A stretch of DNA of 63,747 nt, taken from contig CAWIYV010000012.1 of assembly GCA_963840455.1 (NCBI GenBank), positions 1 to 63,747 on the forward strand, in the 5' to 3' direction. This stretch comes from Nitrospirota bacterium. Its GTDB lineage: Bacteria; Nitrospirota; UBA9217. The notes beneath the pieces are model-generated. The model searched no databases. It saw only the letters and a list, made by a program, of their open reading frames with translations, and was not told the origin of the DNA. Positions 2,909 to 63,747 of the stretch are shown here, in pieces (position 1 is the stretch's first letter; the number at the start of each line of letters is the position of its first letter). Both the position numbers and the translations under genes were made by a program.

Positions 2909-3461
2909 TTACTTGCCTTTCCCCGGCGGGAACTGACTTGAGCAGTTCGGCGATCACCTGGTTGATGCGCTGCTGTTGTTCCTCAGGCGAGGCCTTTGCC
3001 TGGATGGCGGCGGTGGCCGTTCCCTGCCAGATCAGCGTCTTGGTCTTTGCATCAACGATGTTCAGGTTGAGCGTGCCCTCCTGCTTTTCCCGAGGCTTGC
3101 TTTTTCCTCCGCCCACGCGCACCGAGCCATGGCTGCCCACCGGCACGGCAATGGATGCGCCGACCCCCACGGAACCTCCGGTCACCGTCTTCCTGATCCC
3201 CTCCACGGAAACCAGAAAATCGGGGGCATCAGCGGAACGGTTGTATCCCTTTGCCTGCAGCTGGCTGTTCACGGAGCCCTGGACGCGCTTCTCCGTCATT
3301 TCTTCCATCTGGTCGCCCGGAGGAGACGGCATCCATTCAAAGGTCCTGAGCTTCGAGAAATCGTACGTCGTGTCGTAATCATGCTCAACGGCGAGCGGAG
3401 TCGCACAGCCAAGCGTTAGAACGAGTCCAACCAGTACAAACAGAGACGACAGCAGTTTCAT
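2909..3461 (-). CDS. DUF4136-family lipoprotein (1-nt frameshift near the C-terminus)
   Basis: Lipobox LTLGC, DYD..YDFSKLRTFEW and EGTLNLNIVDAKTKTLIWQG motifs. Removing one base near 2936 gives a typical end LLKQFPPGKGK* with stop at 2909-2911; otherwise it reads through to 2682. Confidence 0.78.
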
Positions 3462-3580
3462 ATGACCTCCCTTCGAGGTCCGCTCGCCCCAACGGACGGC
3501 GGAAAGAAGAACGATGTCCCGGTGCTGCCGGTGATCACACCGGCAGACTCCGGAGCCATCTGTCGAGCCCGGTTCCTGCC

Positions 3581-4222
3581 CTACGGCACCACCTTGTCCT
3601 TGCGAATGGCATCCATCATCATTGCAACGTAGTCCTTGATCATCTTCTGGTCCTTGCCCCCGATCCGTGTTGCTGCCGCGGCAGACCAGATCAGCTTCTC
3701 GGAGACTACATCGAACAGGCTCGTCTCTGTCATGACGTAGAGGTCTTCGACCGTATAGCTCGGCGTGTACATTGCATTGTACCCGGCGTTATAATATCCT
3801 GGATAGGAACGGTAATAGGGCGCCGGCTGATACATCGGAGTATACATGGGCTGATAGTTGACCGTGCCGGGCACCTGGACCAGCTCCGTCTTCGTGCCGG
3901 TGACCTGCGTGAGCAGCAGCGCATCGAAGCCTTGTGACTTGAGCTTTTCCTGCAGGACCTCTATCTTCGCCAGTTCCGCCCCGGGAACGACCGTGTACCC
4001 GGGTACCGCATTGACCCCCCGATACTTTAAATGTGCGACGAACTCGTCTTCAAAGATCCGGCGTTGCATCTGGTTCTTCAGGACCGTATAGACCAATATC
4101 TTCTTCGGCTTTCCCTGGTAGTCGGGGTCTTTCCAGACCGAGGTCACTTCCGTGGCCGCGCAGCCGGTGAACAGGGCCGCCGCTGCAAGCAGGAACAACA
4201 GGTATCCAGCCGTTCTCTTCAT
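3581..4222 (-). CDS. DUF4136-like lipoprotein
   Basis: Likely start MKRTAG, lipobox LFTGC, SVWKDPDY and ETSLFDV..EKLIWSA motifs, Tyr/Pro-rich insert. Confidence 0.72.
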   Translation of the reverse strand: MKRTAGYLLFLLAAAALFTGCAATEVTSVWKDPDYQGKPKKILVYTVLKNQMQRRIFEDEFVAHLKYRGVNAVPGYTVVPGAELAKIEVLQEKLKSQGFDALLLTQVTGTKTELVQVPGTVNYQPMYTPMYQPAPYYRSYPGYYNAGYNAMYTPSYTVEDLYVMTETSLFDVVSEKLIWSAAAATRIGGKDQKMIKDYVAMMMDAIRKDKVVP

Positions 4223-4342
4223 CTTCCGCTCCCCTTTATTCGTTCGGACGTCCTGGTCCTTACCGCAGTCCATTATAGCCAATCCGTCAGTGTAATGCCA
4301 GTACCGATCCGGTTCGCCTCCCCTTTCTGCCGTACTGTCTTT

Positions 4343-5443
4343 TCAGAACCCGTATCCGAACTTGAGATAGACGCCGTAATTGTCAGATTTGCCCTGCGCG
4401 TATTCGAAGCTTACCACCATCCCCTCCTTCGGCTTGATGATGTACTGGATGCCCGCTCCATAGGAAGGATAGAGGTTTGCACTGTCCGTACAGTCATTGC
4501 CATTCCCGTAGAGACAGGCTATTCCGGTGAAGACTGTGGCGCCCCAGCTCTTCGCCAGCCGCAACCGCTCTTCGCCCTCGATCGAAGACATGTACCTGCC
4601 CAGATACTGCCCCATCTTGTACCCTCTCAGAACGACCGGGGCATAGGCGCTCGGCGGGGCGTCGACGGTCCACTGGTTTTTCTGCTGCACTGCGAGCACC
4701 TGGCCATTCCAATGCTCCCAGAAGCCCTTGATATCCAGCCGGTAGACGTCGAAATTGTAGTCTCCCGCAAGCCAGTCACGATAGGCGATATTGTTCGCGT
4801 TCAGATACCATCCCTGGGTCGGGCTGAACTCGTTGTTCCGGGAGTCGTGTTGCGCAATAATGCCGATGCCACCCGCCTGGAACCCCGTCAAGCCGAGCAC
4901 GTGCAGGGCTTGGTCGTCAAGGGCGCTCTGCCCGATGATCTGATAGTTGGTATTCAGCGCCTGCATGCCTGCGAACCAGTCGCCCTTCACGCGGTACAGG
5001 TAGCGACCGACGAGCGCGCGGAGGTCGTCCTCGGTCTTTAGTGGCTTGCCTGTGCCGAGGAAATCCTCATAGTCGTTCTTAATGACCCCGCCTGCCGCAA
5101 GGGCGATCAACCGATGATGGTCGGCATCCCACGATGCTTTGCCAACGAGAGCCGCGATCACCGAATCGGTTGAGGTGTATTGCCCGTTCATGCCGAACAT
5201 AGACACCTGTGACTTCTCGTCGAAATAGTGCATATAGAAAGCCATGAACCCTAACGACGTGCCGAGTTTCGGGTCCGACGAGAATGTGGGCATGAGGAGC
5301 CAAGGTGACTTCTTTCCGGAAGGTTCATCCTTCTTTTCTTCCGCAGCAGCCGTTGCCGCCCCCGTCGCAACGGCGGCCTGGGTCCGGCCCGGAGCGAACA
5401 GCACGAGCGCACACACAACGAGCACAACGGCAGGACGCATCAT
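4343..5443 (-). CDS. BamA/TamA (Omp85)-like outer-membrane barrel lacking POTRA domains
   Basis: Signal peptide, HDSRNN and LRGY motifs, C-terminal YLKFGYGF beta-signal; only 366 aa. Confidence 0.72.
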   Translation of the reverse strand: MMRPAVVLVVCALVLFAPGRTQAAVATGAATAAAEEKKDEPSGKKSPWLLMPTFSSDPKLGTSLGFMAFYMHYFDEKSQVSMFGMNGQYTSTDSVIAALVGKASWDADHHRLIALAAGGVIKNDYEDFLGTGKPLKTEDDLRALVGRYLYRVKGDWFAGMQALNTNYQIIGQSALDDQALHVLGLTGFQAGGIGIIAQHDSRNNEFSPTQGWYLNANNIAYRDWLAGDYNFDVYRLDIKGFWEHWNGQVLAVQQKNQWTVDAPPSAYAPVVLRGYKMGQYLGRYMSSIEGEERLRLAKSWGATVFTGIACLYGNGNDCTDSANLYPSYGAGIQYIIKPKEGMVVSFEYAQGKSDNYGVYLKFGYGF

Positions 5444-5469
5444 TCCTTGAATCTCCGATCATCGTGAGA

Positions 5470-6036
5470 TCACTTCACGGACAACTTTATGGTCTGCGAA
5501 TACTCCACCCACAGCATGTCCCCGCGCCGGATCTCATCGAACCGTTTTGCCTCAGGCCCGATCTTGTAGGTCATCATGACGCCGGTGCGGCCCTTGAAGG
5601 TGACCATGCGTTTTTCGTAGTCGATGGACTCGATCTTGGTCCTCAGCGTCCCCTCGATCGTGCGAATGCCCGATGGCTTCTCGCCCGGCAAGGGCGCCGT
5701 CTGCCCTTCAACACCGATATTCATCGGGTCTCCCGGACCGGGCTTGACCTCCGCCTCGATGGTCTGGAAGGTCTCAATGGTCACTTCGTCCCCGATCTTC
5801 AATCGGTTGAGGTTCTGGATATCGGCCCCTACCTTCACGATCCGCACCTTCCCTGATTCGTCCTTCAACGTGACCTTCCGCGTCGCATATTCGACGTCCT
5901 CCACCTTCTCCTTCGTCACCTTGGCCTCGGTGATGGTGAAACTCGGATTCCCGTCGGCCAATTGCGACTGTGCGGCAACTGCGTTCCACGCAAGAAGCAG
6001 CAGGAACGCACTCCCTGCAATTCCAATCATTCTCAT
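5470..6036 (-). CDS. Exported hypothetical protein with two repeated beta-rich units
   Basis: Signal peptide after RBS GGAGG. Internal repeat V..V.Y..RKVTLK...KVG....LKIGD / I..IDY..RMVTFK...KIG....IRRGD. Confidence 0.65.
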   Translation of the reverse strand: MRMIGIAGSAFLLLLAWNAVAAQSQLADGNPSFTITEAKVTKEKVEDVEYATRKVTLKDESGKVRIVKVGADIQNLNRLKIGDEVTIETFQTIEAEVKPGPGDPMNIGVEGQTAPLPGEKPSGIRTIEGTLRTKIESIDYEKRMVTFKGRTGVMMTYKIGPEAKRFDEIRRGDMLWVEYSQTIKLSVK

Positions 6037-6121
6037 GGCATCCCTCCTAGAATTGTTTTCGCTATCATGGCGCCGAGCATCGAAGACGGCGCCGTTCATT
6101 TCCCGGTGTATATAGCGTCCA

Positions 6122-7318
6122 TCACGTATCCCTGGCATCCGGCAGCGTCCGGTCCAGGATCACGTAACCGGCGATCGCCGACAGGAACGACCCGGCGAGG
6201 ATGCCGATGCGTTCATCGACGCTCTGGCCGAGCGATCCCGGCTCGAAGGCAAGCGCACTGATGAACAGGCTCATGGTGAACCCGATCCCGCAGAGCACTG
6301 CAACGCCATAGAAGGACGTCCAGGTCACATTCTCCGGCAGCCGGGATAGCCCCATCTTCACCGCGAGGCAGCTGAACAGAAAAACGCCCGCCTGCTTGCC
6401 CAGGAAGAGGCCGGCAGCGATCCCGAGGGGCAGTGGATGCAGGAGCGACGACAAACGGACCCCTTCCAGCGATATCCCGGCGTTCGCGAATGCGAAGAGC
6501 GGCAAAATGCCGAAGGCGACTGTCGCGTGAAGGTCCTGCTCCAGCTCGCGCAAAGGTGACAACCGGCCATCCGCCCCTCCCCGTAATGGGATGAACAGAG
6601 CGAGGACGACACCGGCGATCGTGGCATGGACGCCGGACTTCAGCACCGCCAGCCAGAGCGCGATGCCGACGATGAGATAGGGCGCCTTGCTCGTCACATC
6701 CCAGCGGTTCAGGAGCAGGAGCACGATGATCATCGCCGCGGCGAACAGGAGCGCCGCCGCCGTCAGCTGCTCGGTGTAGAACAGTGCAATGATCAGGATC
6801 GCACCGACGTCGTCGAAGATGGCGAGCGAGGTCAGGAACACCTTCAGCGACAGCGGCACGCGGCTTCCGAGCAAAGCCATCACGCCAAGCGCGAAGGCGA
6901 TGTCCGTCGCCGCCGGGATCGCCCATCCGCGCAAGGCCGCAGAGCTATCGTGATTCAGCACGACAAAGACCGCGACCGGAACGATCATCCCTCCCAGCGC
7001 GCCCATTGCCGGCAGTGCCACCTGGCGCCAGCTCGCCAGCTCCCCTTCCAGGAACTCCCGCTTCAGCTCCATGCCGATGAGGAAGAAGAAGACCGCCATC
7101 AGACCGTCATTGATCCAGAGCAATGCGGGCTTTGCCACGCTGATCGCGCCCACCCGGACCTCGACCGGAGCATCGAGAAAGGAATCGTACATGGTCACCG
7201 CGGACGAATTCGCGGCGGCAATGGCGAGCGCGGTCGCGGCCATCAGGACTATGCCGCCCGCTGACTCGAGATTGAGGAAATCCCGGACGCTCTTGGCCAC
7301 TCTGTTGATCATAGGCAA
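6122..7318 (-). CDS. nhaA: Na+/H+ antiporter NhaA
   Basis: WINDGLMAVFFFLIGMELKRE, GWAIPAATDIAFALG, LAIFDD, KSGVHAT and LCGIGFTMSLFI motifs. Confidence 0.95.
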   Translation of the reverse strand: MPMINRVAKSVRDFLNLESAGGIVLMAATALAIAAANSSAVTMYDSFLDAPVEVRVGAISVAKPALLWINDGLMAVFFFLIGMELKREFLEGELASWRQVALPAMGALGGMIVPVAVFVVLNHDSSAALRGWAIPAATDIAFALGVMALLGSRVPLSLKVFLTSLAIFDDVGAILIIALFYTEQLTAAALLFAAAMIIVLLLLNRWDVTSKAPYLIVGIALWLAVLKSGVHATIAGVVLALFIPLRGGADGRLSPLRELEQDLHATVAFGILPLFAFANAGISLEGVRLSSLLHPLPLGIAAGLFLGKQAGVFLFSCLAVKMGLSRLPENVTWTSFYGVAVLCGIGFTMSLFISALAFEPGSLGQSVDERIGILAGSFLSAIAGYVILDRTLPDARDT

Positions 7319-7461
7319 TGCAGTTCTGGTTCCCTTGATCCCGCTTCAGCGCTGCCTTGGCTCACATACGCTCAGCTTCCACCTTACCAAACTTCCCGGT
7401 AGATCTGCTCTACACCTTCGATCCGTACCGGGACTTCCAGATCTGCGTATCAGTTGCCCTG

Positions 7462-7767
7462 TCAGCTCGGCCCGCCGGGCTTCTTGAACTTCTCTTTTGC
7501 TGCGGTGACGGCGTTCTGAAGTTCCGCCCATGCCGTTTCCGCGCCCGCCTTCAGCGCGTCCCAAGCCTCGGTGCTCGCGCCCTTCAGCTCCTGCAGTTTC
7601 TGCTTCGCGGCATCGCGCTGGTCCTTGAGCTGCTTGATCTGGTTCTCATAGCCGGACTTCGCATCAGCCTTGGCCGCACGGGCCTTGGACTCAAGCTCAT
7701 CGATCTTGGTGGACCACTCTTTGAGCTGCGCTGCCAGTTTATCGATATACTCCTCTCTGCTCTTCAT
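7462..7767 (-). CDS. Small coiled-coil protein (Sll1863-like)
   Basis: 101 aa, helical and Lys/Glu/Ala-rich (REEYIDKLAAQLKEW...EAWDALKAG), with a good RBS. Confidence 0.72.
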   Translation of the reverse strand: MKSREEYIDKLAAQLKEWSTKIDELESKARAAKADAKSGYENQIKQLKDQRDAAKQKLQELKGASTEAWDALKAGAETAWAELQNAVTAAKEKFKKPGGPS

Positions 7768-7863
7768 ACTGGTTTCCTCCTTTCAAATGAACATGAGATG
7801 GTATTGTTGACTCACCATACCTATCGCGTTCTCGTGCGAAGCCATGCCCTGGCATCCATCCCG

Positions 7864-9369
7864 TCACGGAGATGCGCCGTGGCACTCATGGCACAGCATC
7901 TCTTTCCAGGAATTCCCGATGTCCACGGGATGGGGGTTCTTCATGACCTGGAAGAGGGCCTTGTCCTGCCCGCCTGTGCCCGCGTCCCCGACCCGCTCGA
8001 TCAGGAGATGGCAGAGGCTGCAGTCCCGGGACAGGACCGCTCCGTCATCGCTCCGGTGTTTGCCGTCGTGGCAGCGGAAGCAGCCCGGTGAAAAGCGGTG
8101 TCCCTGGTTGTCCGGAAAGTTCTTCCAGCTGACCTTCATGTGCGGATCATAGTTGCGTTCATAGGCGCTCTGGAGCGATTGTATCGCCCTGCTGATCGAC
8201 CGCTTCGCCTCTTGCAGCCAGGGCAGGATATGATGTCTTGTAGAACTCCCTGAGCGACGCCCCGATGCGTTCACGAGCCTCTTCCCTCGACGCGTACACT
8301 CCCTCGAGCGCCTTCACCGCGACGCTTTTCACCTCGGGAAGCGCCGGATCGATGAGCTTTGCGGCCAGCAGAGCGTTCACGATGACATCAGGCGGACGAT
8401 AAGGATGCCCCGGCCGGTTGTGGCAATCGACACAGTCCATCCTGCGCTTTTCAACCTTGTTCAACTCAGCGTCGGTCATCCCTGCGTCCGTGCTGCGGTA
8501 CACCCGCTCCTTCCCGTCCAGCCGCTTCACCCGTATCCAGGGGATCAACATCCGCTTCGGGTCCGTCGCAACATAGACGATCTCCTCAGTCGTGCTGGAA
8601 TGCCAGTGCATCTTCGGCGGACGTTCCGTCGAAATCTCCGCCTTGCCCATTCGCAGGAGCAGGTTGATCGTTTTCCGCGTGTTCTTCTTGTCCGAGAGGA
8701 AGTAGGTCCTGCTCTCCAGCCGCTGGTTGATCTGGTACTGCGGACCGTGGCAGTTCTCGCAGACATCCTGTGACGGCCTGAGGTCTGCGACGGGCGTCGG
8801 GATCGGCCGCGGGTAGCGGCCGGCCAGGACATCGAAAAGCTGCCGCGTCCCCTTCAGCTTATAGAGAAGGAAATACTTCGCGCCTGGCCCCACGTGGCAG
8901 TCGACGCAGGCTATCTCGGCATGGACCGAGTAGGCATGGGACCGCAGTTCCGGACCCATGACCTGATGGCACATTTTCCCGCAGAAGGTTTCCGATTCAG
9001 TGAACTCATAGGCCTTGTAGCCGGCAAAAGCATAGAGCAGCGACAGCAGCACGAATGCCGTCAGCACGAGAATGGCGGTCTTTCGATGCCTGGGATCGTT
9101 GAAGTCAACGACCAGGAAGCGACGCTCTACGCCCGCGCCTTCCCGCTCCCTTCGCCGCTCGCGCCTGATGCCGATGATGATGAGGACCACGCCGAAAAGG
9201 ACGAGGCTGGCAGCAGGAGCCAGATGACAAGATCGGCGTAGGGGTGAACACGTTTGGAGAACGCTTCAACGACCGACAAGAAGACGATGAAGGCGATGTT
9301 GAAGACCGCGATGATCAGGCCGGTCAGGGAAACCGGGCTGGAAAAGACCTTCGGGAATCGTCCGTTCAT
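7864..9369 (-). CDS. Membrane-anchored NapC/NirT-like multiheme cytochrome c (7 heme motifs), split by two frameshifts
   Basis: Joined from ORFs 9127..9396, 8159..9190 and 7864..8274. Three N-terminal TM helices, then CGKMCH, CVDCH, CENCH, CVDCH, CFRCH, CSLCH, CHECH. Shifts near 9207 and 8205. Confidence 0.82.
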
Positions 9370-9477
9370 TGCTGTTCGTGACCTCCTCGGCGGCACAACC
9401 GCCGCCGCGCAGAGACCGTATCGGGACCTGCGCTTCGAACCCGCCTCGCCGGGAGCAGTCCTCCGTTCATCGCTCGG

Positions 9478-10671: not shown

Positions 10672-10691
10672 AGAGCTAGACCTCTCAACGG

Positions 10692-56468: not shown

Positions 56469-56506
56469 ATTTACCTTCCTTTCCGTTCCCTGCCTGTCGC
56501 GTGCCG

Positions 56507-56962: not shown

Positions 56963-57163
56963 TTCCAATCTCCTTCGCCGGTTCGTCTTTCTGCTGCCAT
57001 GGTAGGAGCTCGGCCTTTCGAAGCTACTCCTTCAAATAACGCGACCTCCCGCGATTCGACTCCATCCCTCTCCCCGCGGAATCCGGCGGATCTCTGTCCC
57101 AGTGATCGAAAAACTGCACCGGGAAGGAAAGAGCATGTCACCCATTCCTTCCCGGCGGTAACA

Positions 57164-57320
57164 TCAATCCGACATCGCTTTCTTCTTGGCCGCTTCCTTC
57201 TGCCCCTGCTCCGCCTCCACCTTCTCCGGCGCTTTCATCGGTTTGACCTCGACAGTCACCTTAGTGATATGGCCGGTGAACTTCGACTTCGCTTCCGAAC
57301 CGATGGCCTCGACCACCGGC
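57164..57320 (-). pseudogene. Orphan 3' fragment of the large arylsulfatase
   Basis: PVVEAIGSEAKSKFTGHITKVTVEVKPMKAPEKVEAEQGQKEAAKKKAMSD*; about 19 mismatches in 157 nt versus 61057..61213. Confidence 0.92.
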
Positions 57321-57426
57321 TGTGCGTCAGGACGTGTACCAGATCGGCGACGGCCAGGCGCGCTCGAGAACCGTCACTTCACCTTTTCTTGGACCCCTCG
57401 CTCCTTGGACCCTTTTCTTTCCAACC

Positions 57427-58431
57427 TCATTTCCCCTCTGCCGGGAAAATCCGTTTCCAGTCGTTCTTCATGTCTACCACCGTCCAGCCTTTGGCCTTGG
57501 CCTCGTCAAGCGCCTTGTCCAGCCGACCGATTGAGGACGTACGGTCGTAGGCCCATTCACGCTCAGCGTCGGTGTGATGGACGATCAATGCGAAGCGCGG
57601 CCCGCTGCCGGCAGCCGTCCATTGCAGCATCTGCAAATCTCCATCGGAGTTGCCGAAAGCGGCGATGGGGCGACGACCGATGCGATTTTCTATGCCGACG
57701 GGCTTGCCTTCCTTGTCGTCATTCAGGTCAACGGAGGGCAGCTTTACTAGCACCGGCCTGCCCTCACGCATTTCGAACTGCAATTTTACGCTGCTGCCCA
57801 CGACCTGCTCCGGCGGGATGCCATAGACCTTTTCGGTCCACGGGCGCATGAACTCAATGCCGCCGCCGGAGACGATAAATGTCTTGAACCCGTTGGAGCG
57901 AAGATAAGCAAGTAGTTCGAGCATAGGCTGATAGACCATCTCCGTGTACAGCTTGCCGGTCTTCGGATGCCTTGCCGCCGCGATCCAGTCGCTCACGATC
58001 TTCTCGAATTCCTCGGTGGTCATGCCGGTGTGCGTGGCGGCCAGCATTTCCAGCAGGCCTTTTTCACCCGCAGCAGCGACACCCTTCATGTCGCCCTTGA
58101 GCAGCGAAGCGAAGGGTTCTTTTGTCTTCCACTCAGGATGCTGCGGCGCGAGGGCCTTCACACGGTCAATAAGGAACAGACCCTGGAAGTACATGGGCTG
58201 CTCGGCCCACAGAGTGCCGTCGTTGTCGAAGACGGCGAAGCGTTCGGGTACCGGCACGAACTCCGGCGAGCCTTCTTTTGTCACCTTCGCGACGAAAGTG
58301 ATTATGGCCTGCTTGGCCTTGCCGTCATTCCAGGAGGGCAGAATCTCTGCGGCGTGAACAATGGTAGTGGCGCAAACCAGCACACCGATGAGCGCGGCGG
58401 CAATGAGGTCTTGGATGCGTTTGGTTTTCAT
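57427..58431 (-). CDS. Exported HAD-family hydrolase
   Basis: Signal peptide; FDNDGTLW, IVSGG and FGNSDGD motifs. Confidence 0.9.
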   Translation of the reverse strand: MKTKRIQDLIAAALIGVLVCATTIVHAAEILPSWNDGKAKQAIITFVAKVTKEGSPEFVPVPERFAVFDNDGTLWAEQPMYFQGLFLIDRVKALAPQHPEWKTKEPFASLLKGDMKGVAAAGEKGLLEMLAATHTGMTTEEFEKIVSDWIAAARHPKTGKLYTEMVYQPMLELLAYLRSNGFKTFIVSGGGIEFMRPWTEKVYGIPPEQVVGSSVKLQFEMREGRPVLVKLPSVDLNDDKEGKPVGIENRIGRRPIAAFGNSDGDLQMLQWTAAGSGPRFALIVHHTDAEREWAYDRTSSIGRLDKALDEAKAKGWTVVDMKNDWKRIFPAEGK

Positions 58432-58541
58432 TTCGGCAGTCCTCCCACAGTCGTGACAATCCCTGTGATCCAAAAGAAATATGATAACGTTTTATCGAAT
58501 GAATTGTTCATGAGAGCGATGTTCCTTTTTGTCTAAGTAAT

Positions 58542-58569
58542 GCGCCCGCCGCCGTGAGACGGCGGGCGC
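58542..58569 (-). terminator. GC-rich hairpin after the arylsulfatase
   Basis: GCGCCCGCCG / CGGCGGGCGC perfect 10-bp stem. Confidence 0.5.
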
Positions 58570-58586
58570 CGTAGTGCTCTGTCGCG

Positions 58587-60251
58587 TTACTTGCTTGCGC
58601 CGCCAGCAGCTGCTTTTTCCATTTTAGCCTGCATTTCCTCCAGCGCCTTCTTGATGCTCAGTGTGTCGGCGCCCTGGCTCGGTGGGTATTCCATCAAACT
58701 CTTCAGGTGCGCACCGATGATCGGTCCGGATGCGTTCAACGCCCACATCTTGTGCGCGAAGAACTGCCGGCTAGCGGTGCCCCATTCATGCGACTCCTGA
58801 TCCATTTTCTCCATGGGGTCCATCTGCAAGTTGAAGAAATACGGAATGCTGGGATAATACTTGTCGTTCCACCAGCTGCCCTCTTTCTTTACCCCGATAT
58901 GCATCTTCCAACTGTCCACACGCAAGGCCATGAGATCGGTCTCGTCGTAGTAGAAAATTTCCCTGCGGGCGGATTTCTCGGACTTGCCGGTCCAGAGGTC
59001 GAGCTGGTTATAGCCGTCGAGGTGGACCTTGTAGGTCATGTCGCCCATCTTGTAGCCCTTGAGCAGGTCTTGTGTAAGGCTCGGCAAACCAGCCGCCGCC
59101 GCGAGGGTGACGTAAACATCTTCGTGGTTCTGGATGCCATTGACCACTTGCCCGGGCTTGATGTGGCCGGGCCACTTCACCATCATCGGGACGCGCACGC
59201 CGCCTTCCCAGGTGGTGCCCTTTTCACCGCGGAAGGGTGCGTAGCCACCGTCCGGCCAGAGCATCAGTTCGTTGCCGTTGTCGGTGCTGTAAATGACGAT
59301 GGTGTTGTCGGCGATACCGAGTTCGTCGAGTTTCTTGAGCAGCGAGCCGACCAGTTCGTCGTGCTCGATCATGCGGGCTCGGACCACGTCCTCTTCGGGC
59401 CGGCCCTCATCCACCGCCTTCTGAAGGTATTTCTGCGCGGGGCGAGAGCGGATGTGAATCGCCGTCGAGTTATACCAACAGAAGAACGGCTTGTCGCTCT
59501 TGCCATGCTTGTCCAGCCACTTCAACGTCTCAGCGGTTACCTCGGCGTCGACGGTCTCCATGCGCTTGCGAGTGAGCTTGCCGATGTCCTCGATCTTCTG
59601 TTTGCCGACACGGCCAAACTTCGGGTCAACCGTCGGGTCATCCACATTCGTGGCCCAGGTGTGGAGCATGCCGCGCGGCGCAAACATCTGGGTAAATTTG
59701 GCTGACTGCTCAGCTGTGCGAAGCTTGGGATTTACCTGCCCGGGGTAGTCGAGTTCTTCGGGCTCCTCTTCCGCGTTCAGGTGATAGAGGTTGCCATACC
59801 ATTCGTCAAACCCATGCACGGTGGGCAGGAACTCGTTGCGGTCACCCTGGTGGTTCTTGCCAAACTGCGCGGTCGCGTAGCCCAGCGATTTCAGCACCTC
59901 GGCCAGCGTGGGATCGGATTTTTGAATCCCGCGCGTCGAGCCGGGAATCCCGATGGTCGTCATCCCGGTGCGGATGGGCAACTGCCCCATGATGAACGCC
60001 GCGCGGCCGGCGGTGCAACTCGGCTGGCCGTAGTGGTCGGTGAAGAGCATGCCCTGCTTGGCGATACTATCGATTTGCGGCGTTTTCCCCATCATGCCGA
60101 GCGAATACGCGCCGACATTCCACATGCCGATGTCGTCGCCCCAGATGACGAGGATGTTCGGCTTCTTCTGTTCTGCCGCAGATGTTGGGCTGGCGATCAA
60201 AGCCAATCCGACAATGATTATGGCGAGCACTACTGCTATCTTTGTTCTCAT
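58587..60251 (-). CDS. Arylsulfatase (Cys-type), paralog of 52647..54278
   Basis: SCTAGRAAFIMG motif; very similar signal peptide and N-terminus. Confidence 0.92.
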   Translation of the reverse strand: MRTKIAVVLAIIIVGLALIASPTSAAEQKKPNILVIWGDDIGMWNVGAYSLGMMGKTPQIDSIAKQGMLFTDHYGQPSCTAGRAAFIMGQLPIRTGMTTIGIPGSTRGIQKSDPTLAEVLKSLGYATAQFGKNHQGDRNEFLPTVHGFDEWYGNLYHLNAEEEPEELDYPGQVNPKLRTAEQSAKFTQMFAPRGMLHTWATNVDDPTVDPKFGRVGKQKIEDIGKLTRKRMETVDAEVTAETLKWLDKHGKSDKPFFCWYNSTAIHIRSRPAQKYLQKAVDEGRPEEDVVRARMIEHDELVGSLLKKLDELGIADNTIVIYSTDNGNELMLWPDGGYAPFRGEKGTTWEGGVRVPMMVKWPGHIKPGQVVNGIQNHEDVYVTLAAAAGLPSLTQDLLKGYKMGDMTYKVHLDGYNQLDLWTGKSEKSARREIFYYDETDLMALRVDSWKMHIGVKKEGSWWNDKYYPSIPYFFNLQMDPMEKMDQESHEWGTASRQFFAHKMWALNASGPIIGAHLKSLMEYPPSQGADTLSIKKALEEMQAKMEKAAAGGASK

Positions 60252-60341
60252 AACACCTCCTTGTTGGTACGTTGCTCTCTGCGGAAATCCGTTAGACTAT
60301 GTTCCAGTGGTCACACAACCTCACCTCCTTATTTAAAATAC

Positions 60342-60590
60342 AGGGTCCAAGGATTGAAGCTCCCTGCAGCAAGCAGCAGGGAATCTTCGATCATCAAGGT
60401 ATTACTATTTATTCTAATCGCTCGCTAACCCCGCGTCATGCTGGGGGAATGCGCTCGCTCCTCGATTCGAGGGTTCGAAGGTTCAAGTGAAAACTCTAAA
60501 CGCTCACCCGTTCTAAATTCTGTCTTTCGTCTTTTCACGCGGACACTGGAACCCTTTGCCCCACAGACCCTGTTCTTTCCCCTCGACCCT
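60342..60590. repeat. Octamer inverted element interrupted by the 117-bp element
   Basis: AGGGTCCAAGGA[insert]GGGTTCGAAGGTTCAAGTGA...GGACACTGGAACCCTTTGCCCC...CCCTCGACCCT. Confidence 0.6.
60354..60470. mobile_element. 117-bp non-autonomous element, copy 2
   Basis: Same length as 15519..15635 and closely similar, sharing AGGGAATCTTCGATC, TTATTCTAATCGCTCGCTAACCCCGC and GGGGAATGCGCTCGCTCCT. Confidence 0.68.
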
Positions 60591-60597
60591 GTTGTTA

Positions 60598-60614
60598 TAA
60601 TCCGACATCGCCTT
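60598..60614. repeat. 17-bp direct repeat of the arylsulfatase 3' end
   Basis: TAATCCGACATCGCCTT occurs at 60598-60614 and 61058-61074, flanking gene 60636..61001. Confidence 0.85.
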
Positions 60615-60635
60615 GTCTCTCGTGTTATCTTTCCC

Positions 60636-61001
60636 TTAGTCCGTTGCTCGTTGCTCTTTACACCATGCGCGGGCCAGAAGAAACGTCAATAGTGCGTGAA
60701 GCGCCACCGTAGGCCACAACAGCATTCCTACCCGCTGACCTTCAATACCCAGATAGGCAAGATAAAGCGTGACGAGGGCGCTGTAAGTCAGCATGCCCCA
60801 AAGCGCCTGCGCCGCACCGCTGATCGGCCAGCAGGCCACTCCGAAGGCGATCAGGGCGATCCCGGCCACGCGGCTCATCACGACACCCGCGTCTGCGATC
60901 CGGGCATTGAACAACAGCCGGACCACGATCGACGGATACACCAGCAGGACCAGGCCCAAGCCCGCTTCGCCCGCAGCAGTAAATGTAAGTAATTTTTTCA
61001 T
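60636..61001 (-). CDS. Small 4-TM hypothetical membrane protein
   Basis: Start MKKLLTF, four hydrophobic segments, G.LLWP.VALH motif. Confidence 0.72.
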   Translation of the reverse strand: MKKLLTFTAAGEAGLGLVLLVYPSIVVRLLFNARIADAGVVMSRVAGIALIAFGVACWPISGAAQALWGMLTYSALVTLYLAYLGIEGQRVGMLLWPTVALHALLTFLLARAWCKEQRATD

Positions 61002-61056
61002 CGTGCTTTCCTTCGCTTGCCATGATCCTCGTTCCATCCTGACGAGCACACGTTTC

Positions 61057-63504
61057 TTAATCCGACATCGCCTTTTTCTTTGCCGTTTCCTTCTGGCCCT
61101 TCTCCGCCTCAGCCTTGTCGGTCGCCTTCATCGGTTTGACCTCGACGGTCACCTTCGTGATATGGCCCGTGAATTTCGACTTCGCTTCCGACCCGATCGC
61201 CTCGACCACCGGCGTGCCAAGGTCGATGCCCACGTCTGCTGTCTCGTCCGCCGAGAAGATCCCGGCCTGGGTATGTTCGATCCGTCCTTCGGCAACCTTC
61301 TCATTGTTCACGAAGAGGGTGCCGGTGCCGCCCTTGCCGGGTCCGCCTCCGTCATAGGCGAAGTCGAACTTGATCGTATTCTTGCCGGGTGCAAGTTTCT
61401 TGGTCGAGGCGATCGTTGTGTGCTGGAGACCAAGGAAGTTGTAATCGTACGCGGGAACTCCGTCCTTCACGTAGAGCGCCCAGCCGCCGAAGCGGCCGCC
61501 CTGCACCAGGATCGCGCCGTTCGCGCCTCCTGCAGGCACCTCGATCTCCGCAGTGATGGTTTTGGACTTGTTCTTCACGTTGATGAATACATTCTCCATC
61601 ATACCGGTCATGCCCTCGGCGAGCGCGAGCGAGGTCCGGTCGCCCATCAGTTCAGGGCGATGCACCATTTTGGCGCTCATACGCTCAAGCACGCGGTCGT
61701 CGATGGGCAGCACATGGTGCTCCTCGGCCTCTTTCATGAACAGTGCCTGCATCTCCGCAAGCTTCTTCGGGTTCTTTGCAGCCAGGTCATTGGAGAGGCT
61801 GAAATCGGAGCGTATGTCATAAAGCTCCCACACATCCTTATCGAGGGTCGCACGCGGCTTGTACTCCCACGGCGCCCTGTGTATGACGCGGGCCATCCAG
61901 CCGTCGTGGTAGATGGCCCGGTTGCCGGCGATCTCGAAGTACTGCGTGGTATGGCGCTCCTTTGCCTTGGCATCCTCGAAGGTGTAGACCATGCTCACGC
62001 CTTCCATCGGTATCTGCGGCGTGCCGTCGACCACCTTCGGCTCGGGCAGTTTTGCCGCCTCAAGTATCGTCGGCGCCACGTCGATCACGTGCGTGAACTG
62101 GCTGCGCATCTCGTTTTTCGCCTTGATCCCCTTGGGCCAGTAGACGACCATCCCGTTCCGCGTGCCGCCGAAGTCCGAGGCGACCTGCTTGGTCCAGGTG
62201 AACGGCGAGTCCATAGCGACTGCCCAGCCCGAGGCATAGTGCGGGTAGGTCTCGGGACCGCCCCACTTGTCCGCCAGCTTCAGCATGTCGGCAACCTTCT
62301 CCGGAACTGCGTTGAAGTAGGTATACTCGTTGAACATGCCGTTTTCGCCTCCTTCGGCACTGGCGCCGTTGTCTCCGGCAATGTAAAAGACAAGGGTATT
62401 GTCTGCCTGACCAGCCTCTTCGACAGCCTTGAGCATCCGGCCGATCTCATGATCGGTGAAGTCAAGATAGGCGGCGAACACTTCCATCTGGCGGGCATAC
62501 AGACGCTTCTCGTCGGCAGTGAGCTTATCCCAGTCCCTGATCGCAGCAGGCTTGGGCGCCAGCTTCGTGCCCGACGGGATGATCCCCGCCTTGAGCTGCC
62601 GGGCGAAGGTCTCCTCGCGCATCCTGTCCCAGCCTCCGTCGAACTTGCCCTTCCATTTGGCGATCCACTCCTGTGGTACGTGGTGCGGTGCGTGAGTGGC
62701 ACCTGGCGCGAAGTAGACAAAGAACGGCTTCTCCGGCGTCATGGCCTTCTGGTACTTGATCCAGGCCACCGCCTTGTCGGTCATATCGGTCATGAAGTGG
62801 TAGTTCGGGTCATGCGGCAGCTCGACCGGGGTGACGCCGTCGAAGATATACGGCGCCCACTGGTTCGTCTCGCCGCCGATGAATCCGTAGAACTTGTCGA
62901 AACCCTGATGAGTCGGCCAACGGTCGAAGGGTCCGGACACACTGGTCTCCCATGCCGCGGTCTCATGCCATTTGCCGAAGGCCGCGGTGCTGTAGCCGTT
63001 CAGGCGAAGCATTTCCGCCAACGGCGCAGTCGCGTTGGGGATCTGGCCTGTTGCACCGGGGAAGCCGGTCCCCATCTCGGTGATGAAACCCATGTTGACG
63101 GTGTGGTGATTGCGGCCGGACTTGAGCGCTGCACGCGTCGGCGAACACAGTGCCGTGGTATGGAAGTTGTTGTAGCGCAGGCCATCCTGCGCGAGGCGCC
63201 CGAGTGTCGGGGTGGGGATCGGGCCGCCAAAGGCATCGGTCGCGCCGAAGCCCAGATCATCGATCAGGATGATAATGACGTTCGGCGCGCCGGCAGGCGC
63301 CTTGACCTCGAAGTTCGGCGGCATCTTCGCGTTCCGTGCGTCCAGTTCTTTGTACAGCGGCCGCTTCGGTTCCTGGATCGGAAGCACCGTGCGGTCCGGC
63401 GCTGCTGTTTCGGACGACCCTTCTGCTGCGTACGAGCTGGATCCTATCACTAGAACGACCAACATAAGCAACATCATACTTACGAACTTCATGACCTGTT
63501 TCAT
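61057..63504 (-). CDS. Large arylsulfatase (AtsA-like) with C-terminal beta-sandwich extension
   Basis: PNVIIILIDDLG, LCSPTRAALKSG (CxPxR), GKWH, GATHAPH and GDNG motifs; signal peptide. Confidence 0.93.
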   Translation of the reverse strand: MKQVMKFVSMMLLMLVVLVIGSSSYAAEGSSETAAPDRTVLPIQEPKRPLYKELDARNAKMPPNFEVKAPAGAPNVIIILIDDLGFGATDAFGGPIPTPTLGRLAQDGLRYNNFHTTALCSPTRAALKSGRNHHTVNMGFITEMGTGFPGATGQIPNATAPLAEMLRLNGYSTAAFGKWHETAAWETSVSGPFDRWPTHQGFDKFYGFIGGETNQWAPYIFDGVTPVELPHDPNYHFMTDMTDKAVAWIKYQKAMTPEKPFFVYFAPGATHAPHHVPQEWIAKWKGKFDGGWDRMREETFARQLKAGIIPSGTKLAPKPAAIRDWDKLTADEKRLYARQMEVFAAYLDFTDHEIGRMLKAVEEAGQADNTLVFYIAGDNGASAEGGENGMFNEYTYFNAVPEKVADMLKLADKWGGPETYPHYASGWAVAMDSPFTWTKQVASDFGGTRNGMVVYWPKGIKAKNEMRSQFTHVIDVAPTILEAAKLPEPKVVDGTPQIPMEGVSMVYTFEDAKAKERHTTQYFEIAGNRAIYHDGWMARVIHRAPWEYKPRATLDKDVWELYDIRSDFSLSNDLAAKNPKKLAEMQALFMKEAEEHHVLPIDDRVLERMSAKMVHRPELMGDRTSLALAEGMTGMMENVFINVKNKSKTITAEIEVPAGGANGAILVQGGRFGGWALYVKDGVPAYDYNFLGLQHTTIASTKKLAPGKNTIKFDFAYDGGGPGKGGTGTLFVNNEKVAEGRIEHTQAGIFSADETADVGIDLGTPVVEAIGSEAKSKFTGHITKVTVEVKPMKATDKAEAEKGQKETAKKKAMSD

Positions 63505-63527
63505 TTTCTTTACTCCTTTCTATGAGT

Positions 63528-63690
63528 AGGGTCCAAGGATTCGGGGGTTCCAGGGTTCTAGGATTCAAGGATTCAAGTGAGAAGCGCAAATCACTCGACA
63601 CCTCGGATCTTGTTCTTTCACTCTTTTACTCGGCCCCTTGAATCCTTGGCCCCTTGAACCCTTCTTTTATTATTCCCCTCGAATCCTACC
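63528..63690. repeat. Best-preserved octamer inverted element
   Basis: GGGTCCAA GGATTCGG GGGTTCCA GGGTTCTA GGATTCAA GGATTCAA GTGA...TCACTCGACACC...CCCCTTGAATCCTTGGCCCCTTGAACCC. Confidence 0.72.
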
Positions 63691-63694
63691 ATCC

Positions 63695-63747
63695 TTATTT
63701 TGCTATTTCCTTAAGAAGCATCTCGGCGTCCTTGTACTGTGGATACT
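63695..63747 (-). CDS. 3' end of a gene cut by the window edge
   Basis: ...YPQYKDAEMLLKEIAK*; product cannot be assigned. Confidence 0.4.
   Translation of the reverse strand, partial: YPQYKDAEMLLKEIAK

Follow-up and report, generated by a model that had tools for sequence, protein, structure and literature searches.

Orphan gene ends in a one-directional gene array beside tRNA-Ala(GGC) point to ordinary recombination and deletion, not to a new gene-capture system

The window, i.e. the whole 63,747-nucleotide stretch analysed here, lies on contig C12 of a 14-contig assembly (source genome G000), and is best read as the tRNA-Ala(GGC)-proximal 64 kb of a chromosomal flexible region: a mosaic, strand-biased array bearing ordinary recombination scars, probably formed with no dedicated recombinase and no att or attC site (a reading given a probability of roughly 0.65). 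The initial annotation had proposed instead a gene-accumulating system, in which the genes of the array serve as interchangeable landing pads and incoming DNA from related arrays integrates at their 3′-ends, enforcing co-orientation and providing integron-like accumulation without attC sites. For the most part this system was not supported, the orphan gene ends being better explained as scars of ordinary recombination and deletion. The features concerned are listed in Table 1.

Table 1. Features of the window (positions 1 to 63,747), in order of position
Feature	Coordinates	Strand	Basis or remark
tRNA-Ala(GGC), 3′ half	1..44	+	5′ half at the end of contig C1
AsmA/YhdP-like gene	216..2678	+	Pfam PF05170, PF13116; convergent with the array
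Co-oriented run, about 50 genes	2682..63504	-	G-rich (leading) strand; ORFs, Pfam, GC skew
Dispersed two-hairpin repeat, 117 bp	15518..15633	-	Self-comparison
Duplicated block, copy 1	28429..28913	-	Cys-rich 137-aa gene plus 72-bp leader
Cross-phylum glucose-dehydrogenase module	28966..37332	-	Pfam
MITE-like dispersed repeat	37368..37512		Between remnant A and the start of the glucose dehydrogenase gene
Remnant A, GH63-type 3′ end, about 68 aa	37562..37765	-	Begins where the AI-2E gene stops
Duplicated block, copy 2	39069..39553	-	92% identical to copy 1
Intact GH63 (MGH1-like) glycosidase, clade 1 of the family	43369..46110	-	Pfam
DUF1254/DUF1214 gene	54418..55944	-	Pfam; usual downstream partner of the 815-aa sulfatase elsewhere
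Remnant B	57105..57325	-	Sulfatase-allele end (57166-57325) plus terminator hairpin flank (57105-57165)
Cargo: HAD-family hydrolase	57427-58473	-	Pfam
Cargo: 554-aa sulfatase	58587-60251	-	Pfam
17-nt sulfatase-end copy	60598..60614	-	Identical to the 17 nt that end the sulfatase gene, 61058-61074
ORF137, small membrane protein	60636..61049	-	No Pfam match
Intact 815-aa sulfatase	61057..63504	-	Pfam PF00884

The working list for the window contained 55 ORFs, 54 of them on the minus strand (2682 to 63504); the only plus-strand ORF is the AsmA-like gene, which is 90% identical at the nucleotide level in the sister species G003. The one-directional array of ∼61 kb that had been described was therefore recovered, with a count of about 50 genes rather than 45. 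Its contents, as assigned by Pfam, comprise DUF4136 lipoproteins, NhaA, multihaem cytochromes, an RND efflux operon, patatins, TspO, a GH13-like gene, a SulP transporter, the glucose-dehydrogenase module, AI-2E, an MscS channel, GH63, a flavocytochrome, a 5′-nucleotidase and three sulfatases. The description of these genes as mostly exported was roughly right, an N-terminal hydrophobic segment being present in 33 of the 55 ORFs according to a crude hydropathy rule. No transposase, integrase or regulator domain was detected by Pfam among the window ORFs, and none of the seven genome-wide matches to Phage_integrase (PF00589) falls on contig C12, in agreement with what had been noticed at the outset. 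The 117-bp two-hairpin repeat has a further copy at 60353-60468 and a short form at 26417-26459.

The array does stand beside a tRNA gene, as had been claimed. Bases 1-44 gave an Rfam match to a tmRNA-type 3′ end (E 3e-10); when the start of C12 was joined to the end of contig C1, with which it overlaps by 13 bases, ARAGORN called a tRNA-Ala(GGC), while no whole tRNA was found in the window by ARAGORN or by Rfam at gathering score. An array starting at this tRNA, within which the assembly breaks, might be the product of one or several islands accreted by integrases at tRNA-Ala, the integrases and att repeats having later been lost. Additive islands adjacent to tRNA genes are well known (PMC4898812, in excerpt), and decayed integrase fragments lie beside tRNAs at C14:532928-533158 and C7:444253-444345. 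Nevertheless, the contig contains no integrase match, a repeat of the tRNA 3′ end, allowing 3-4 mismatches, was found in neither the window nor the genome, and the neighbour of the tRNA is an AsmA-like gene of housekeeping type. Moreover, the tRNA-proximal 12 kb is collinear with G003 (251-12459, 77-93% identity) and thus vertically inherited with that species. A decayed tRNA island is thus very unlikely.

The orphan end of the 815-aa sulfatase is a genuine insertion scar. A 3.9-kb block separates the intact gene from a copy of its end, which is followed by the terminator and the DUF1254/DUF1214 gene. This copy, reported initially as 157 bp, extends over 160 bp up to the stop codon (57166-57325 versus 61059-61217, 88.1% identity), and 46 of its 51 encoded residues (90%) are identical to the sulfatase C-terminus. 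Within the block, ORF137 begins 8 bp past the sulfatase stop, and 22 bp after ORF137 lies the 17-bp orphan end, also confirmed, after which the sulfatase terminator flank recurs in degenerate form; the two nested end copies belong to the same sulfatase and have the same orientation. An ORF137 homologue follows the 815-aa sulfatase in G065 (37-41% amino acid identity) and at locus L154 (64%), and the cargo pair formed by the 554-aa sulfatase and the HAD hydrolase is adjacent in G033:C8 (51% and 66% amino acid identity) and at L205. No donor carrying exactly this cargo beside the sulfatase at high identity was found, that of G065 reaching 40-52% at the amino acid level.

The search for empty alleles that had been suggested gave a positive result for this gene, undisplaced alleles being present in two other genera (G050 and G033). 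In G050:C45, the sulfatase orthologue (86% nucleotide identity) runs into the sequence that follows the remnant in the window (87% over 221 bp), beyond which comes the DUF1254/DUF1214 gene (82% over 1742 bp). The flank of remnant B is homologous to the sequence after the sulfatase in G050, G033 and G031, and the stop-plus-hairpin of the gene is the same in G033 and G031. Among 59 metagenome loci, DUF1254/DUF1214 was the first neighbour downstream of the sulfatase in 10 and the second in 2. Were the cargo the later arrival, remnant B should keep the ancestral terminator and this partner gene, as it does. Between the two sulfatase ends, 19 of 160 positions differ; the 18 coding differences are distributed 3/1/14 by codon position (chi-square 16.3, p about 3e-4, by hand arithmetic), with 12 codons changed synonymously and 5 non-synonymously. 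This third-position excess indicates that both ends diverged as working genes before one of them was truncated.

Two other origins were considered for this scar. In a 14-contig assembly whose contig C12 starts inside a tRNA, two strains with different contexts after the sulfatase might have been stitched together. The 19 differences between the two ends speak against such an artefact, five other contigs bear scars of a similar kind, and the roughly 4 bases that the left joint has in common with the sulfatase are too few for an assembler jump; the idea is scarcely credible. The other origin is pure deletion, whereby two full sulfatase paralogues (one located after the HAD gene) and two GH63 genes would have been present and the second copies cut back. 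The third-position excess fits long-lived functional paralogues as well as it fits foreign alleles, and deletion is evidently at work in this array, since in G003 it produced both a 173-bp 3′ remnant of ORF 4343-5443 and an internally deleted gene. For the sulfatase, however, it requires three tandem copies cut to exact 3′-ends of 160 and 17 bp, and it has to accommodate a remnant that retains its ancestral terminator and partner gene. Further, a second full sulfatase downstream of HAD was seen in no relative (the second sulfatase of G057 is only 43% identical). As an explanation of the whole array, pure deletion is doubtful. The insertion scar at the sulfatase fits either a single crossover or homology-facilitated illegitimate recombination (HFIR), although HFIR, entry of a circle and deletion between paralogues are indistinguishable from one genome.

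For the orphan glucosidase end, the initial annotation was correct in recognizing a GH63-type 3′-end but not in deriving it from the intact GH63 of the window. The 68 residues of remnant A are 59% identical to amino acids 831-898 of that protein and 44-50% identical to the GH63 of clade 2 of the family, while they are 66-76% identical to GH63 proteins of other phyla whose genes immediately precede that of glucose dehydrogenase; an origin as a copy of the GH63 gene of the window was accordingly rejected. Remnant A is separated by a MITE-like repeat (73 HSPs in G000 and many copies in G001-G005) from a module encoding glucose dehydrogenase, a cyclase-family protein, a 6PGD-like protein, a CoA-disulfide-reductase-like PNDR-rhodanese, ORF177, SulP-STAS and an NMT1-like protein. 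Homologues of this module, 65-89% identical at the amino acid level, occur in many phyla, where those co-oriented with glucose dehydrogenase outnumber the others by 306 to 11 (80 loci); the best glucose dehydrogenase among 63 genomes of the same order showed 40% identity. A match to remnant A was present at 44 of the 80 glucose-dehydrogenase loci (best 70-76% amino acid identity). At 15 of 69 loci of other phyla a full GH63 gene ends ≤400 bp upstream of glucose dehydrogenase, and at 16 more one lies within 2.5 kb upstream. Full-length second copies, which had been named at the outset as a sign of simple deletion decay, therefore exist for GH63, and remnant A represents the decay of a second gene, in line with deletion. 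It is most probably what is left of the gene that headed the imported GH63-glucose-dehydrogenase module, of which many phyla have intact versions, its 5′ 2.5 kb having been lost either by deletion or because the acquired fragment ended there.

The two further orphan ends that had been read as 'EKARASA*' are not gene ends. The motif lies at 28884-28904 and 39524-39544, within the 72-bp upstream flank of a 485-bp block found by self-comparison to be duplicated; about 106 nt, covering the leader and the start of the Cys-rich small gene, are identical between the two copies, and nothing there marks the end of a gene.

The proposal that integration enforces co-orientation did not hold, as the orientation of genes follows a genome-wide leading-strand bias rather than their route of acquisition. 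The G-rich strand holds 70.7% of 2964 crude gene calls in the whole genome, GC skew correlates with the plus-strand fraction (r = 0.64 over 201 bins), and other contigs have one-strand runs of 44, 42, 36, 35 and 34 genes; genome-wide, 13 of 339 windows of 60 kb are ≥95% co-oriented. In the window, GC skew is negative in 29 of 31 2-kb bins, and the same crude caller found 42 of 44 genes co-oriented, split only by one spurious antisense ORF. Location on one replichore together with a strong leading-strand bias would make the genes face one way. Since the run in the window (about 50 genes, 61 kb) stands at the top of the distribution for the genome, strand bias may not be the whole story.

The bias of remnants towards 3′-ends was not observed either. 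Gene fragments in this genome amounted to 24 from 5′-ends, 20 internal and 15 from 3′-ends, and those in 196 related loci to 10 from 5′-ends and 8 from 3′-ends. All three scars of the window are 3′-ends, two of them nested at one gene, just as integration at landing pads predicts; with only two independent loci, it lies within what chance could give. At other places in G000, ordinary cargo of 0.9-9 kb is bracketed by partial copies, 72-392 bp long, of a gene end. Three of these concern 3′-ends and three, as mirror images, 5′-ends; two near-tandem 3′ partial copies also stand only 67-164 bp from their parents. Over these eight cases, the differences were distributed 35/28/74 by codon position. 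A few more 3′ fragments are present in related arrays, for example a HAD end upstream of the GH13-like gene (G031 and G033), an OMF end (L151) and a SulP end (L041).

The array is a mosaic, as seen with crude gene calls and with relatives that are species representatives, often fragmented into short contigs. Many of its modules recur at 65-95% amino acid identity in other genera of the same bacterial family, and the same families appear in other orders, on one strand, in G065:C1, G033:C6, G050:C27, L152 and others. Content varies within the genus, where the 815-aa sulfatase and the GH63 gene are each present in one of five genomes and the HAD hydrolase of the cargo in none of five. Gene sharing is out of step with phylogeny: sulfatase orthologues are 86-94% identical at the amino acid level in other genera, and GH63 is 84% identical in G065 and G075 (94% in G003). 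Such shuffled, co-oriented arrays in other genera, the nested sulfatase ends with their empty alleles, the additional scars in the genome and the proposal of the same mechanism for rhs tips (PMC2935791, in excerpt) all suit a landing-pad system. Even so, none of the 59 other sulfatase loci carries a remnant (the scar is present at 1 of 60 loci), so that the sulfatase is not a recurrent landing pad, nor are array genes supported as interchangeable ones. With co-orientation following GC skew, fragments showing no 3′ bias, 5′ scars present, remnant A derived from a different GH63 lineage, 'EKARASA*' explained otherwise and part of the array simply inherited, such a system is improbable; integration at a 3′-end stands as a fit to the one sulfatase locus that has empty alleles.

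The events are consistent with the idea that a flexible region (plasticity zone) arose as a mosaic of separately acquired modules, which recur shuffled but co-oriented in other genera and, in the case of the glucose-dehydrogenase module, across many phyla. At the sulfatase, the donor would have been a related array already carrying the order sulfatase - ORF137 - sulfatase - HAD. One join would have used homology within the sulfatase, the other being illegitimate (HFIR), or else a circle would have entered by a single Campbell-type crossover. Either route, if transfer ran in the direction and the events in the order proposed here, would leave an intact sulfatase, 3.9 kb of cargo, and then the last 160 bp of the resident allele with its terminator and DUF1254/DUF1214, while the nested 17-bp copy would mark a second, similar event around ORF137. 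None of these steps would call for a dedicated recombinase or an att or attC site.

Several known systems, described here from excerpts of the papers cited, resemble this arrangement. In the C-terminal displacement of rhs genes, for which homologous recombination and circular intermediates have been proposed (Jackson et al. 2009, BMC Genomics 10:584; PMC2935791), an intact gene is followed by displaced 3′-end copies in the same orientation, with acquired DNA between them. Displaced copies and undisplaced relatives are found here too, but different tips and recurrence are not: an incoming rhs tip brings a new toxic C-terminus and an immunity gene, and long tip arrays recur in many strains, whereas here the displaced sulfatase end is the same C-terminus, the cargo consists of unrelated enzymes, and the scar was seen at 1 of 60 loci. 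In the orphan immunity arrays of the Vibrio cholerae T6SS (Kirchberger et al. 2017, Sci Rep 7:45133; PMC5361080), formed by sequential displacement, a conserved upstream stretch anchors HFIR, and successive insertions push older material, including the effector 3′-end, downstream; their authors pointed to the likeness to integrons and to the absence of an integrase. That locus, however, is dedicated to effectors and their immunity genes, so that selection favours keeping displaced genes, while here a functional link between anchor and cargo is absent, as is recurrence. HFIR itself is a low-frequency process demonstrated by experiment in transformable bacteria (Acinetobacter, Streptococcus and Pseudomonas; de Vries & Wackernagel 2002, Prudhomme et al. 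2002, Meier & Wackernagel 2003, all via PMC5361080). Its one-sided homology anchor and illegitimate other end likewise yield an intact anchor gene plus cargo, although here the process is deduced from anatomy only; homologues of ComEC and DprA, both near-universal, are present in the genome.

Additive flexible genomic islands at tRNA/tmRNA genes (Lopez-Perez et al. 2016, GBE 8:1556; PMC4898812) are also tRNA-adjacent hotspots, with mixed-function cassettes that vary in order and number and whose sharing, up to the rank of family, does not follow phylogeny. The window shares the adjacency to a tRNA and a content that varies between relatives, but differs in having neither an integrase nor a second tRNA 3′-end, and in the vertical inheritance with G003 of its tRNA-proximal part. 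Integrons and CALINs resemble it in that acquired genes of diverse function stand in one orientation in an array. attC sites are conserved by structure rather than sequence; no cassette-boundary element was detected in the window by self-blastn, except for dispersed repeats at three joints, or by Rfam. There is no intI (PF00589 being absent from C12), and the units are not mostly short, promoterless single-ORF cassettes but include multi-gene ones, such as the three-gene RND operon and a translationally tight glucose dehydrogenase-cyclase-6PGD-like block, and genes of 2.4-3.2 kb.

At least nine partial gene-end duplications, at 3′- and 5′-ends and with divergence of the third-position type, were counted in the genome, at least six with 0.9-9 kb of accessory cargo between the copies. 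The divergence points to alleles that were probably foreign or once functional, and the DNA lying between such copies could excise in circular form and integrate again in related arrays. That integrase-free addition through gene-end homology is a regular route of flexible-genome growth in this bacterial family is a tentative suggestion, and on balance unlikely. Were it true, the displacement model of the rhs type would extend from toxin genes to metabolic genes. The window offers a well-documented case of a flexible region beside a tRNA built without visible mobile-element machinery, and comparison of empty with filled alleles allows one of its junctions to be reconstructed. It also advises caution, as under a strong leading-strand bias long one-strand runs and a few orphan 3′-ends do not amount to a capture system. 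If addition through end homology were frequent in the family, a recombinational origin of integrase-free islands, a question that concerns many environmental bacteria, would become testable.

The genome that holds the window (4.03 Mb in 14 contigs, 58% G+C) has it as an entire contig, C12 (63,747 bp). No RNA gene was called there by ARAGORN or by Rfam at the gathering score; a permissive Rfam search assigned bases 1-44 (E = 3e-10) to a tRNA-Ala-like molecule of the tmRNA type, of which the contig start leaves only the 3′ end. The complete tmRNA of the genome lies on C11 (703275-703624), not on C12. The terminus of contig C1 carries the 5′ half of a tRNA and overlaps the start of C12 by 13 bases; once the two ends were joined, ARAGORN called tRNA-Ala(GGC), and C12 therefore comes after C1. 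The tRNA-Ala proposed in the initial annotation is thus real, as is the one-directional array that it described. Some of the 54 listed minus-strand ORFs are not separate genes (15573-15947 consists of dispersed repeats, 26467-26952 and 26528-27211 are parts of a single frameshifted gene, and 49376-49921 and 49744-50340 are overlapping entries), so that the array amounts to ~50 genes. The parts at 26467-26952 and 26528-27211, with the upstream 27212-27437, jointly match one ~300-aa gene of relatives, which is either frameshifted in the window or affected by an indel error. Homology to the NapC-type cytochrome gene 8159-9190 runs on upstream in another frame (9191-9477).

Positions of features in the window
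Feature	Position	Strand	Remarks
Hairpin			between the tRNA and the AsmA/YhdP-like gene
AsmA/YhdP-like gene	216-2678	+	only plus-strand gene
Co-oriented run	2682-63504	-	54 ORFs in working list
117-bp dispersed repeat	15518-15633, 60353-60468; short form 26417-26459		two 8-bp-stem hairpins, both with CTTG loops
Glucose dehydrogenase gene	36283-37332		just downstream of remnant A
MITE-like element	37368-37512		~145 bp, inverted ends; in the short spacer between remnant A and the glucose dehydrogenase gene
Remnant A (GH63 3′ end)	37562-37765		begins at the stop of the AI-2E gene
Intact GH63 gene	43369-46110		
Remnant B (copy of X end)	57166-57325		160 bp
17-nt copy of X end	60598-60614		22 bp past ORF137
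ORF137	60636-61049		small ORF after X
X, sulfatase gene	61057-63504	-	815 aa

Pfam content comprised DUF4136 lipoproteins, NhaA, NapC-type and other multihaem cytochromes, small Cys-rich repeat proteins, an RND efflux operon, two patatins (one fused to Omp85), TspO, a Na/Ca exchanger, GH13-like, NMT1-like, SulP-STAS and PNDR-rhodanese proteins, a 6PGD-like dehydrogenase, a cyclase-family protein, glucose dehydrogenase, AI-2E, MscS, GH63, a flavocytochrome, a 5′-nucleotidase, DUF308, DUF1254/DUF1214, HAD and three sulfatases. An N-terminal hydrophobic segment was present in 33 of 55 ORFs (crude hydropathy rule). Pfam detected neither a regulator nor a transposase or recombinase domain among the window ORFs, and the seven PF00589 matches of the genome all lie outside C12, in agreement with what had been noticed from the sequence. 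The lack of a transcription-factor domain over ~50 consecutive genes (2682-63504) is unusual at such size; 13 ORFs had no Pfam match. Elsewhere in the genome, broken or partial Phage_integrase matches (C14:532928-533158, C7:444253-444345) adjoin tRNA-like hits (C14:532749-532824, C7:444507-444582) and look like decayed tRNA-integrated elements. A plasmid or phage origin of C12 was dropped, since Pfam returned no replication, partition, transfer or phage domains.

Internal similarities of the window were listed by self-blastn, tblastn and a 14-mer scan. Both orphan sulfatase 3′ ends that had been reported were recovered. The last 160 bp of X recur as remnant B (88.1% nt, 46/51 aa), the match stopping at the stop codon, and the 3.9 kb between X and this copy of its own end hold ORF137, an exact copy of the last 17 nt of X, a dispersed repeat, a 554-aa sulfatase gene and a HAD gene. 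Beyond the 17-mer lies a degenerate copy of the sequence found 3′ of X in relatives. A 17-mer match is near chance level for the whole window (the 14-mer scan gave one unrelated 17-mer pair), but a chance origin is implausible because it is the very end of X that recurs just past the next ORF. X itself is an accessory gene: it was matched in one of five same-genus genomes (the sister species G003, which holds only a paralogue at 34% and, at the end of a contig, a C-terminal piece at 61%), and in 9 of 64 genomes of the order at E ≤ 1e-50, with aa identities in other genera of the family of 86% (G057), 88-94% (G065) and 69% (G033).

The empty allele predicted in the initial annotation, in which X runs straight into the gene now beyond the remnant, was found in a relative (G050:C45). 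There, an X orthologue (86% nt over 2,469 bp) runs without interruption into a homologue of the remnant flank (87% over 221 bp, window 57325-57105), and the DUF1254/DUF1214 gene follows ~1.6 kb further (82% over 1,742 bp, window 56142-54422). Similarity also passes the X stop into the flank of remnant B in G033, and the hairpin that follows remnant B stands right after the X stop in G050, G031 and G033. Homologues of X were present in 80 metagenome loci (66-94% aa), 59 of them with at least 600 bp downstream; DUF1254/DUF1214 was the first same-strand downstream neighbour in 10 of the 59 and the second in 2 more. From the G050 context, the shared hairpin and the metagenome loci, the order X, terminator, DUF1254/DUF1214 is the common and probably the ancestral arrangement. 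A second context is represented by G065:C1 and the metagenome locus L154 (X 94% aa), both of which have an ORF137 homologue directly after X; in G065, a 528-aa sulfatase gene comes next with a 52-bp spacer, the same as that after the 554-aa sulfatase gene of the window. The sulfatase-HAD pair adjoins in G033:C8 and L205. Given these neighbours, the window appears to combine the two contexts, the second giving way to the first within the end of X.

Remnant B and X differ at 18 coding positions, distributed 3/1/14 over codon positions 1/2/3 (chi-square 16.3, 2 df, p ~3e-4), with 12 codons synonymous and 5 not. The third-position excess indicates that the two X ends diverged as working genes, in different lineages or as long-lived paralogues, and this pattern rules out the decay of a recent local duplicate. 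An origin of remnant B by tandem duplication was also rejected, since the cargo is not duplicated and the sulfatase 543/554 pair shares just 75% nt identity. No remnant of the X C-terminus was found downstream of X in the 59 other loci (tblastn, E ≤ 1). When the remnant and X's own end were compared with 17 homologues, affinities differed by at most 4 points and followed no pattern with downstream context, so that donor and resident alleles are not distinguishable. Four metagenome runs holding 5-12% of sampled words gave short unitigs and cross-matches between two paralogous sulfatases, none bridging 57326 or 61057, and are uninformative on misassembly, empty alleles and circles. The joint is best read as an addition of DNA from a related array, for which X would have supplied the homology at one end; the other end would have been closed by illegitimate joining within the resident X (homology-facilitated illegitimate recombination) or by single crossover of a circle, deletion between two paralogues being a further candidate route. 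The same route, 'homologous recombination with circular intermediates', is proposed for rhs tip arrays in an excerpt of PMC2935791, and the joint resembles in this respect the T6SS orphan-immunity arrays, for which an excerpt of PMC5361080 proposes it too. A 48-bp repeat (85% identical, 54354-54401 and 63560-63607) lies upstream of two different sulfatase genes and may be a shared regulatory site.

The glucosidase remnant is likewise an orphan 3′ end, although the reading of it as a landing pad did not hold. The 68 aa encoded by remnant A share 59% identity with aa 831-898 of the intact GH63 and just 44-50% with another clade of GH63 in the family (8/8 loci). The best match of the adjacent glucose dehydrogenase in 63 other genomes of the order was 40%, and it was 73-89% identical in the best 80 loci of a species-level genome collection, labelled as Acidobacteriota, Verrucomicrobia, Bacteroidota, Planctomycetota, Chloroflexi, Nitrospirota, delta- and other Proteobacteria and archaeal MAGs. 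The remnant A peptide matched GH63 in 44 of these best 80 loci, at up to 76% identity. Among the 69 loci with at least 3 kb upstream of the glucose dehydrogenase gene, a same-strand GH63 gene ended within 400 bp of it in 15; in another 16 the distance was up to 2.5 kb. Because relatives keep a full-length GH63 there, remnant A is the stump of the head gene of an imported module; full-length copies in relatives had been named beforehand as the sign of simple decay. The glucose dehydrogenase loci also hold GH13-like, PNDR-rhodanese, NMT1-like, SulP, cyclase, 6PGD-like, AI-2E and sulfatase homologues (65-89% aa). Homologues of window genes were co-oriented with glucose dehydrogenase in 306 of 317 hits, in varying order, whereas all ORFs of these loci showed the usual 74% (600/816); the set is a conserved functional cluster whose one-way orientation does not extend over the rest of each locus.

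Within this cluster, the GH63, GH13-like, glucose dehydrogenase, cyclase, 6PGD-like, PNDR-rhodanese, NMT1-like and SulP genes (28966-37765; loci L041-L120) recur co-oriented and shuffled at 65-89% aa identity across phyla, an identity far above what vertical descent would be expected to leave; the archaeal carriers are labelled as Methanosarcinales and Methanomassiliicoccaceae MAGs. A literature search found no paper combining GH63, glucose dehydrogenase and horizontal gene transfer. The GH63 proteins of L044, L094 and L104 are 79-90% identical to that of the window over their first 130-210 aa and ~58% over the remainder, those of other loci being ~76% or ~61% identical along their full length; this suggests mosaic genes arisen from recombination inside the gene. 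In G050:C27 (L141, 8964-16003; assembly frameshifted), a tandem GH63 pair encloses the 3′ part (aa 223-489) of a GH13-like gene, which makes another rearranged joint in a related array.

Nothing supported the reading of two 'EKARASA*' peptides as orphan gene ends. They are encoded at 28884-28904 and 39524-39544, both inside the 72-bp flank on the upstream side of a duplicated block of 485 bp (92% identical overall) that carries a 137-aa Cys-rich gene, a location that also rules out the 117-bp dispersed repeat, and they represent the shared leader of two paralogues. Leader and gene start are identical over ~106 nt in both copies (28795-28913, 39435-39553), including the first ~45 bp of the genes, the rest of which are ~90% identical, a pattern suggestive of gene conversion or of strong constraint on the leader. 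The leader was absent from the rest of the genome and from 196 related loci by blastn-short, and from 237 loci by exact match.

A 3′ bias of remnants, also anticipated, was not seen. Comparing all intergenic regions of the window by blastx with ORFs of the 196 related loci and proteins of the same genome revealed no further gene fragments, only N-terminal extensions of two genes and dispersed repeats. All crude proteins were searched against the gene-masked genome, with 22 repeat-like queries removed and hits dropped if below 45% identity or if at least 60% of the query lay nearby. Of 59 fragments, 24 were 5′ ends, 20 internal and 15 3′ ends, the gene calls being crude and tblastn counts dependent on the chosen thresholds. 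Local same-strand cases of an intact parent gene (any gene, not the sulfatase), cargo and a parental 3′ end occurred on C4 (108 bp, 88%), C11 (123 bp, 89%) and again C4 (72 bp, 86%; 9 kb of cargo), besides two near-tandem 3′ partial copies. Mirror cases, with a 5′ end, cargo and then the parent, were found on C11 (103 bp, 98%; MCRA hydratase and MazE as cargo), C4 (392 bp, 94%) and C9 (152 bp, 80%; fatty-acid cis/trans isomerase). Differences summed over eight local cases were 35/28/74 by codon position. The 108-bp case on C4 has a flavodoxin/Fe-S gene as cargo behind an NtrC-type regulator; in relatives the regulator has no flavodoxin gene beside it, but none of them offers a clean empty site. 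Under uniform criteria, the 196 related loci (one genome per species, many fragmented or with long-read frameshifts) held 10 5′ and 8 3′ fragments, three of the former probably being full-length shorter DUF4136 homologues and two HAD 3′ fragments (G031, G033) possibly one event. In G003, which is collinear with window 251-12459 (77-93% nt), a 956-bp deletion left a 173-bp 3′ stump of ORF 4343-5443, intact in the window and in G075, and a 544-bp deletion lies inside gene 10075-10770. All types of fragment are represented, and selection alone explains why partial copies next to an intact gene have to be 3′ pieces on its downstream side or 5′ pieces on its upstream side.

Enforced co-orientation was not supported either. 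Crude genome-wide calling by a simple codon-usage score gave 2,990 ORFs, with one-strandedness of 59-93% per contig. The sign of GC skew is almost constant along each contig, the locally G-rich strand carries 70.7% of 2,964 genes, and skew correlates with plus-strand fraction (r = 0.64, 201 bins). The longest one-strand runs comprise 44 genes (C14, 45 kb), 42 (C11, 77 kb), 36 (C8), 35 (C9, 69 kb) and 34 (C11, 62 kb); by the same caller, C12 has 42 of 44 genes on the minus strand, its run interrupted by a single spurious ORF that lies antisense to gene 10075-10770. At least 95% co-orientation was reached in 13 of 339 60-kb windows, and at least 90% in 37. The plus strand of the window is C-rich in 29 of 31 bins, so the array genes sit on the G-rich, presumably leading, strand. 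The array run lies at the long end of a genome-wide distribution, and a local mechanism is not needed.

Dispersed repeats are abundant. The 117-bp repeat has 183 copies of at least 100 bp in the genome, sometimes in tandem, 158 of them intergenic by the crude gene calls; its orientation was sense relative to both flanking genes in 98 instances and antisense in 31. It had no Rfam match and gave a fold z-score of only -2.0. Copies were also present in each of the five same-genus genomes and in several further genera, and swamped a first DNA search of the same-genus genomes (only nine candidates scored per genome). In the RND operon, the 665-bp spacer between the membrane-fusion and AcrB-type pump genes (15302-15966) is filled by this element and a ~170-bp unit at 15721-15892 (36 HSPs in the genome). 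The MITE-like element had 73 HSPs in this genome and was highly abundant in G005 and further genomes of the genus.

The region represents a flexible zone next to a tRNA, located on the leading strand. The 12 kb nearest the tRNA and the GH63-ORF487 pair are shared with G003, the closest species and, among five same-genus genomes, the only one close enough for synteny (77-93% nt, contigs of 2-8 kb). The remainder is a mosaic whose pieces recur in other order in other genera (G065:C1, G033:C6, G050:C27, G075:C56, G007:C26, L152), one module being shared across phyla. An excerpt of PMC4898812 describes tRNA-adjacent 'additive' islands in Alteromonas, with cassettes flowing up to family rank. Searches of C12 for an integrase and for a repeated tRNA end found neither, and no sequence element common to gene boundaries was found in the window. 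ComEC and DprA are encoded in the genome, but were matched in 10 and 11 of 14 control genomes and are therefore uninformative on competence. The initial annotation was largely accurate as an observation, and one of its predictions was borne out; its integron-like system, like the orientation and the bias ascribed to it, was not supported. The sulfatase case is a new example of known processes acting at an ordinary gene.
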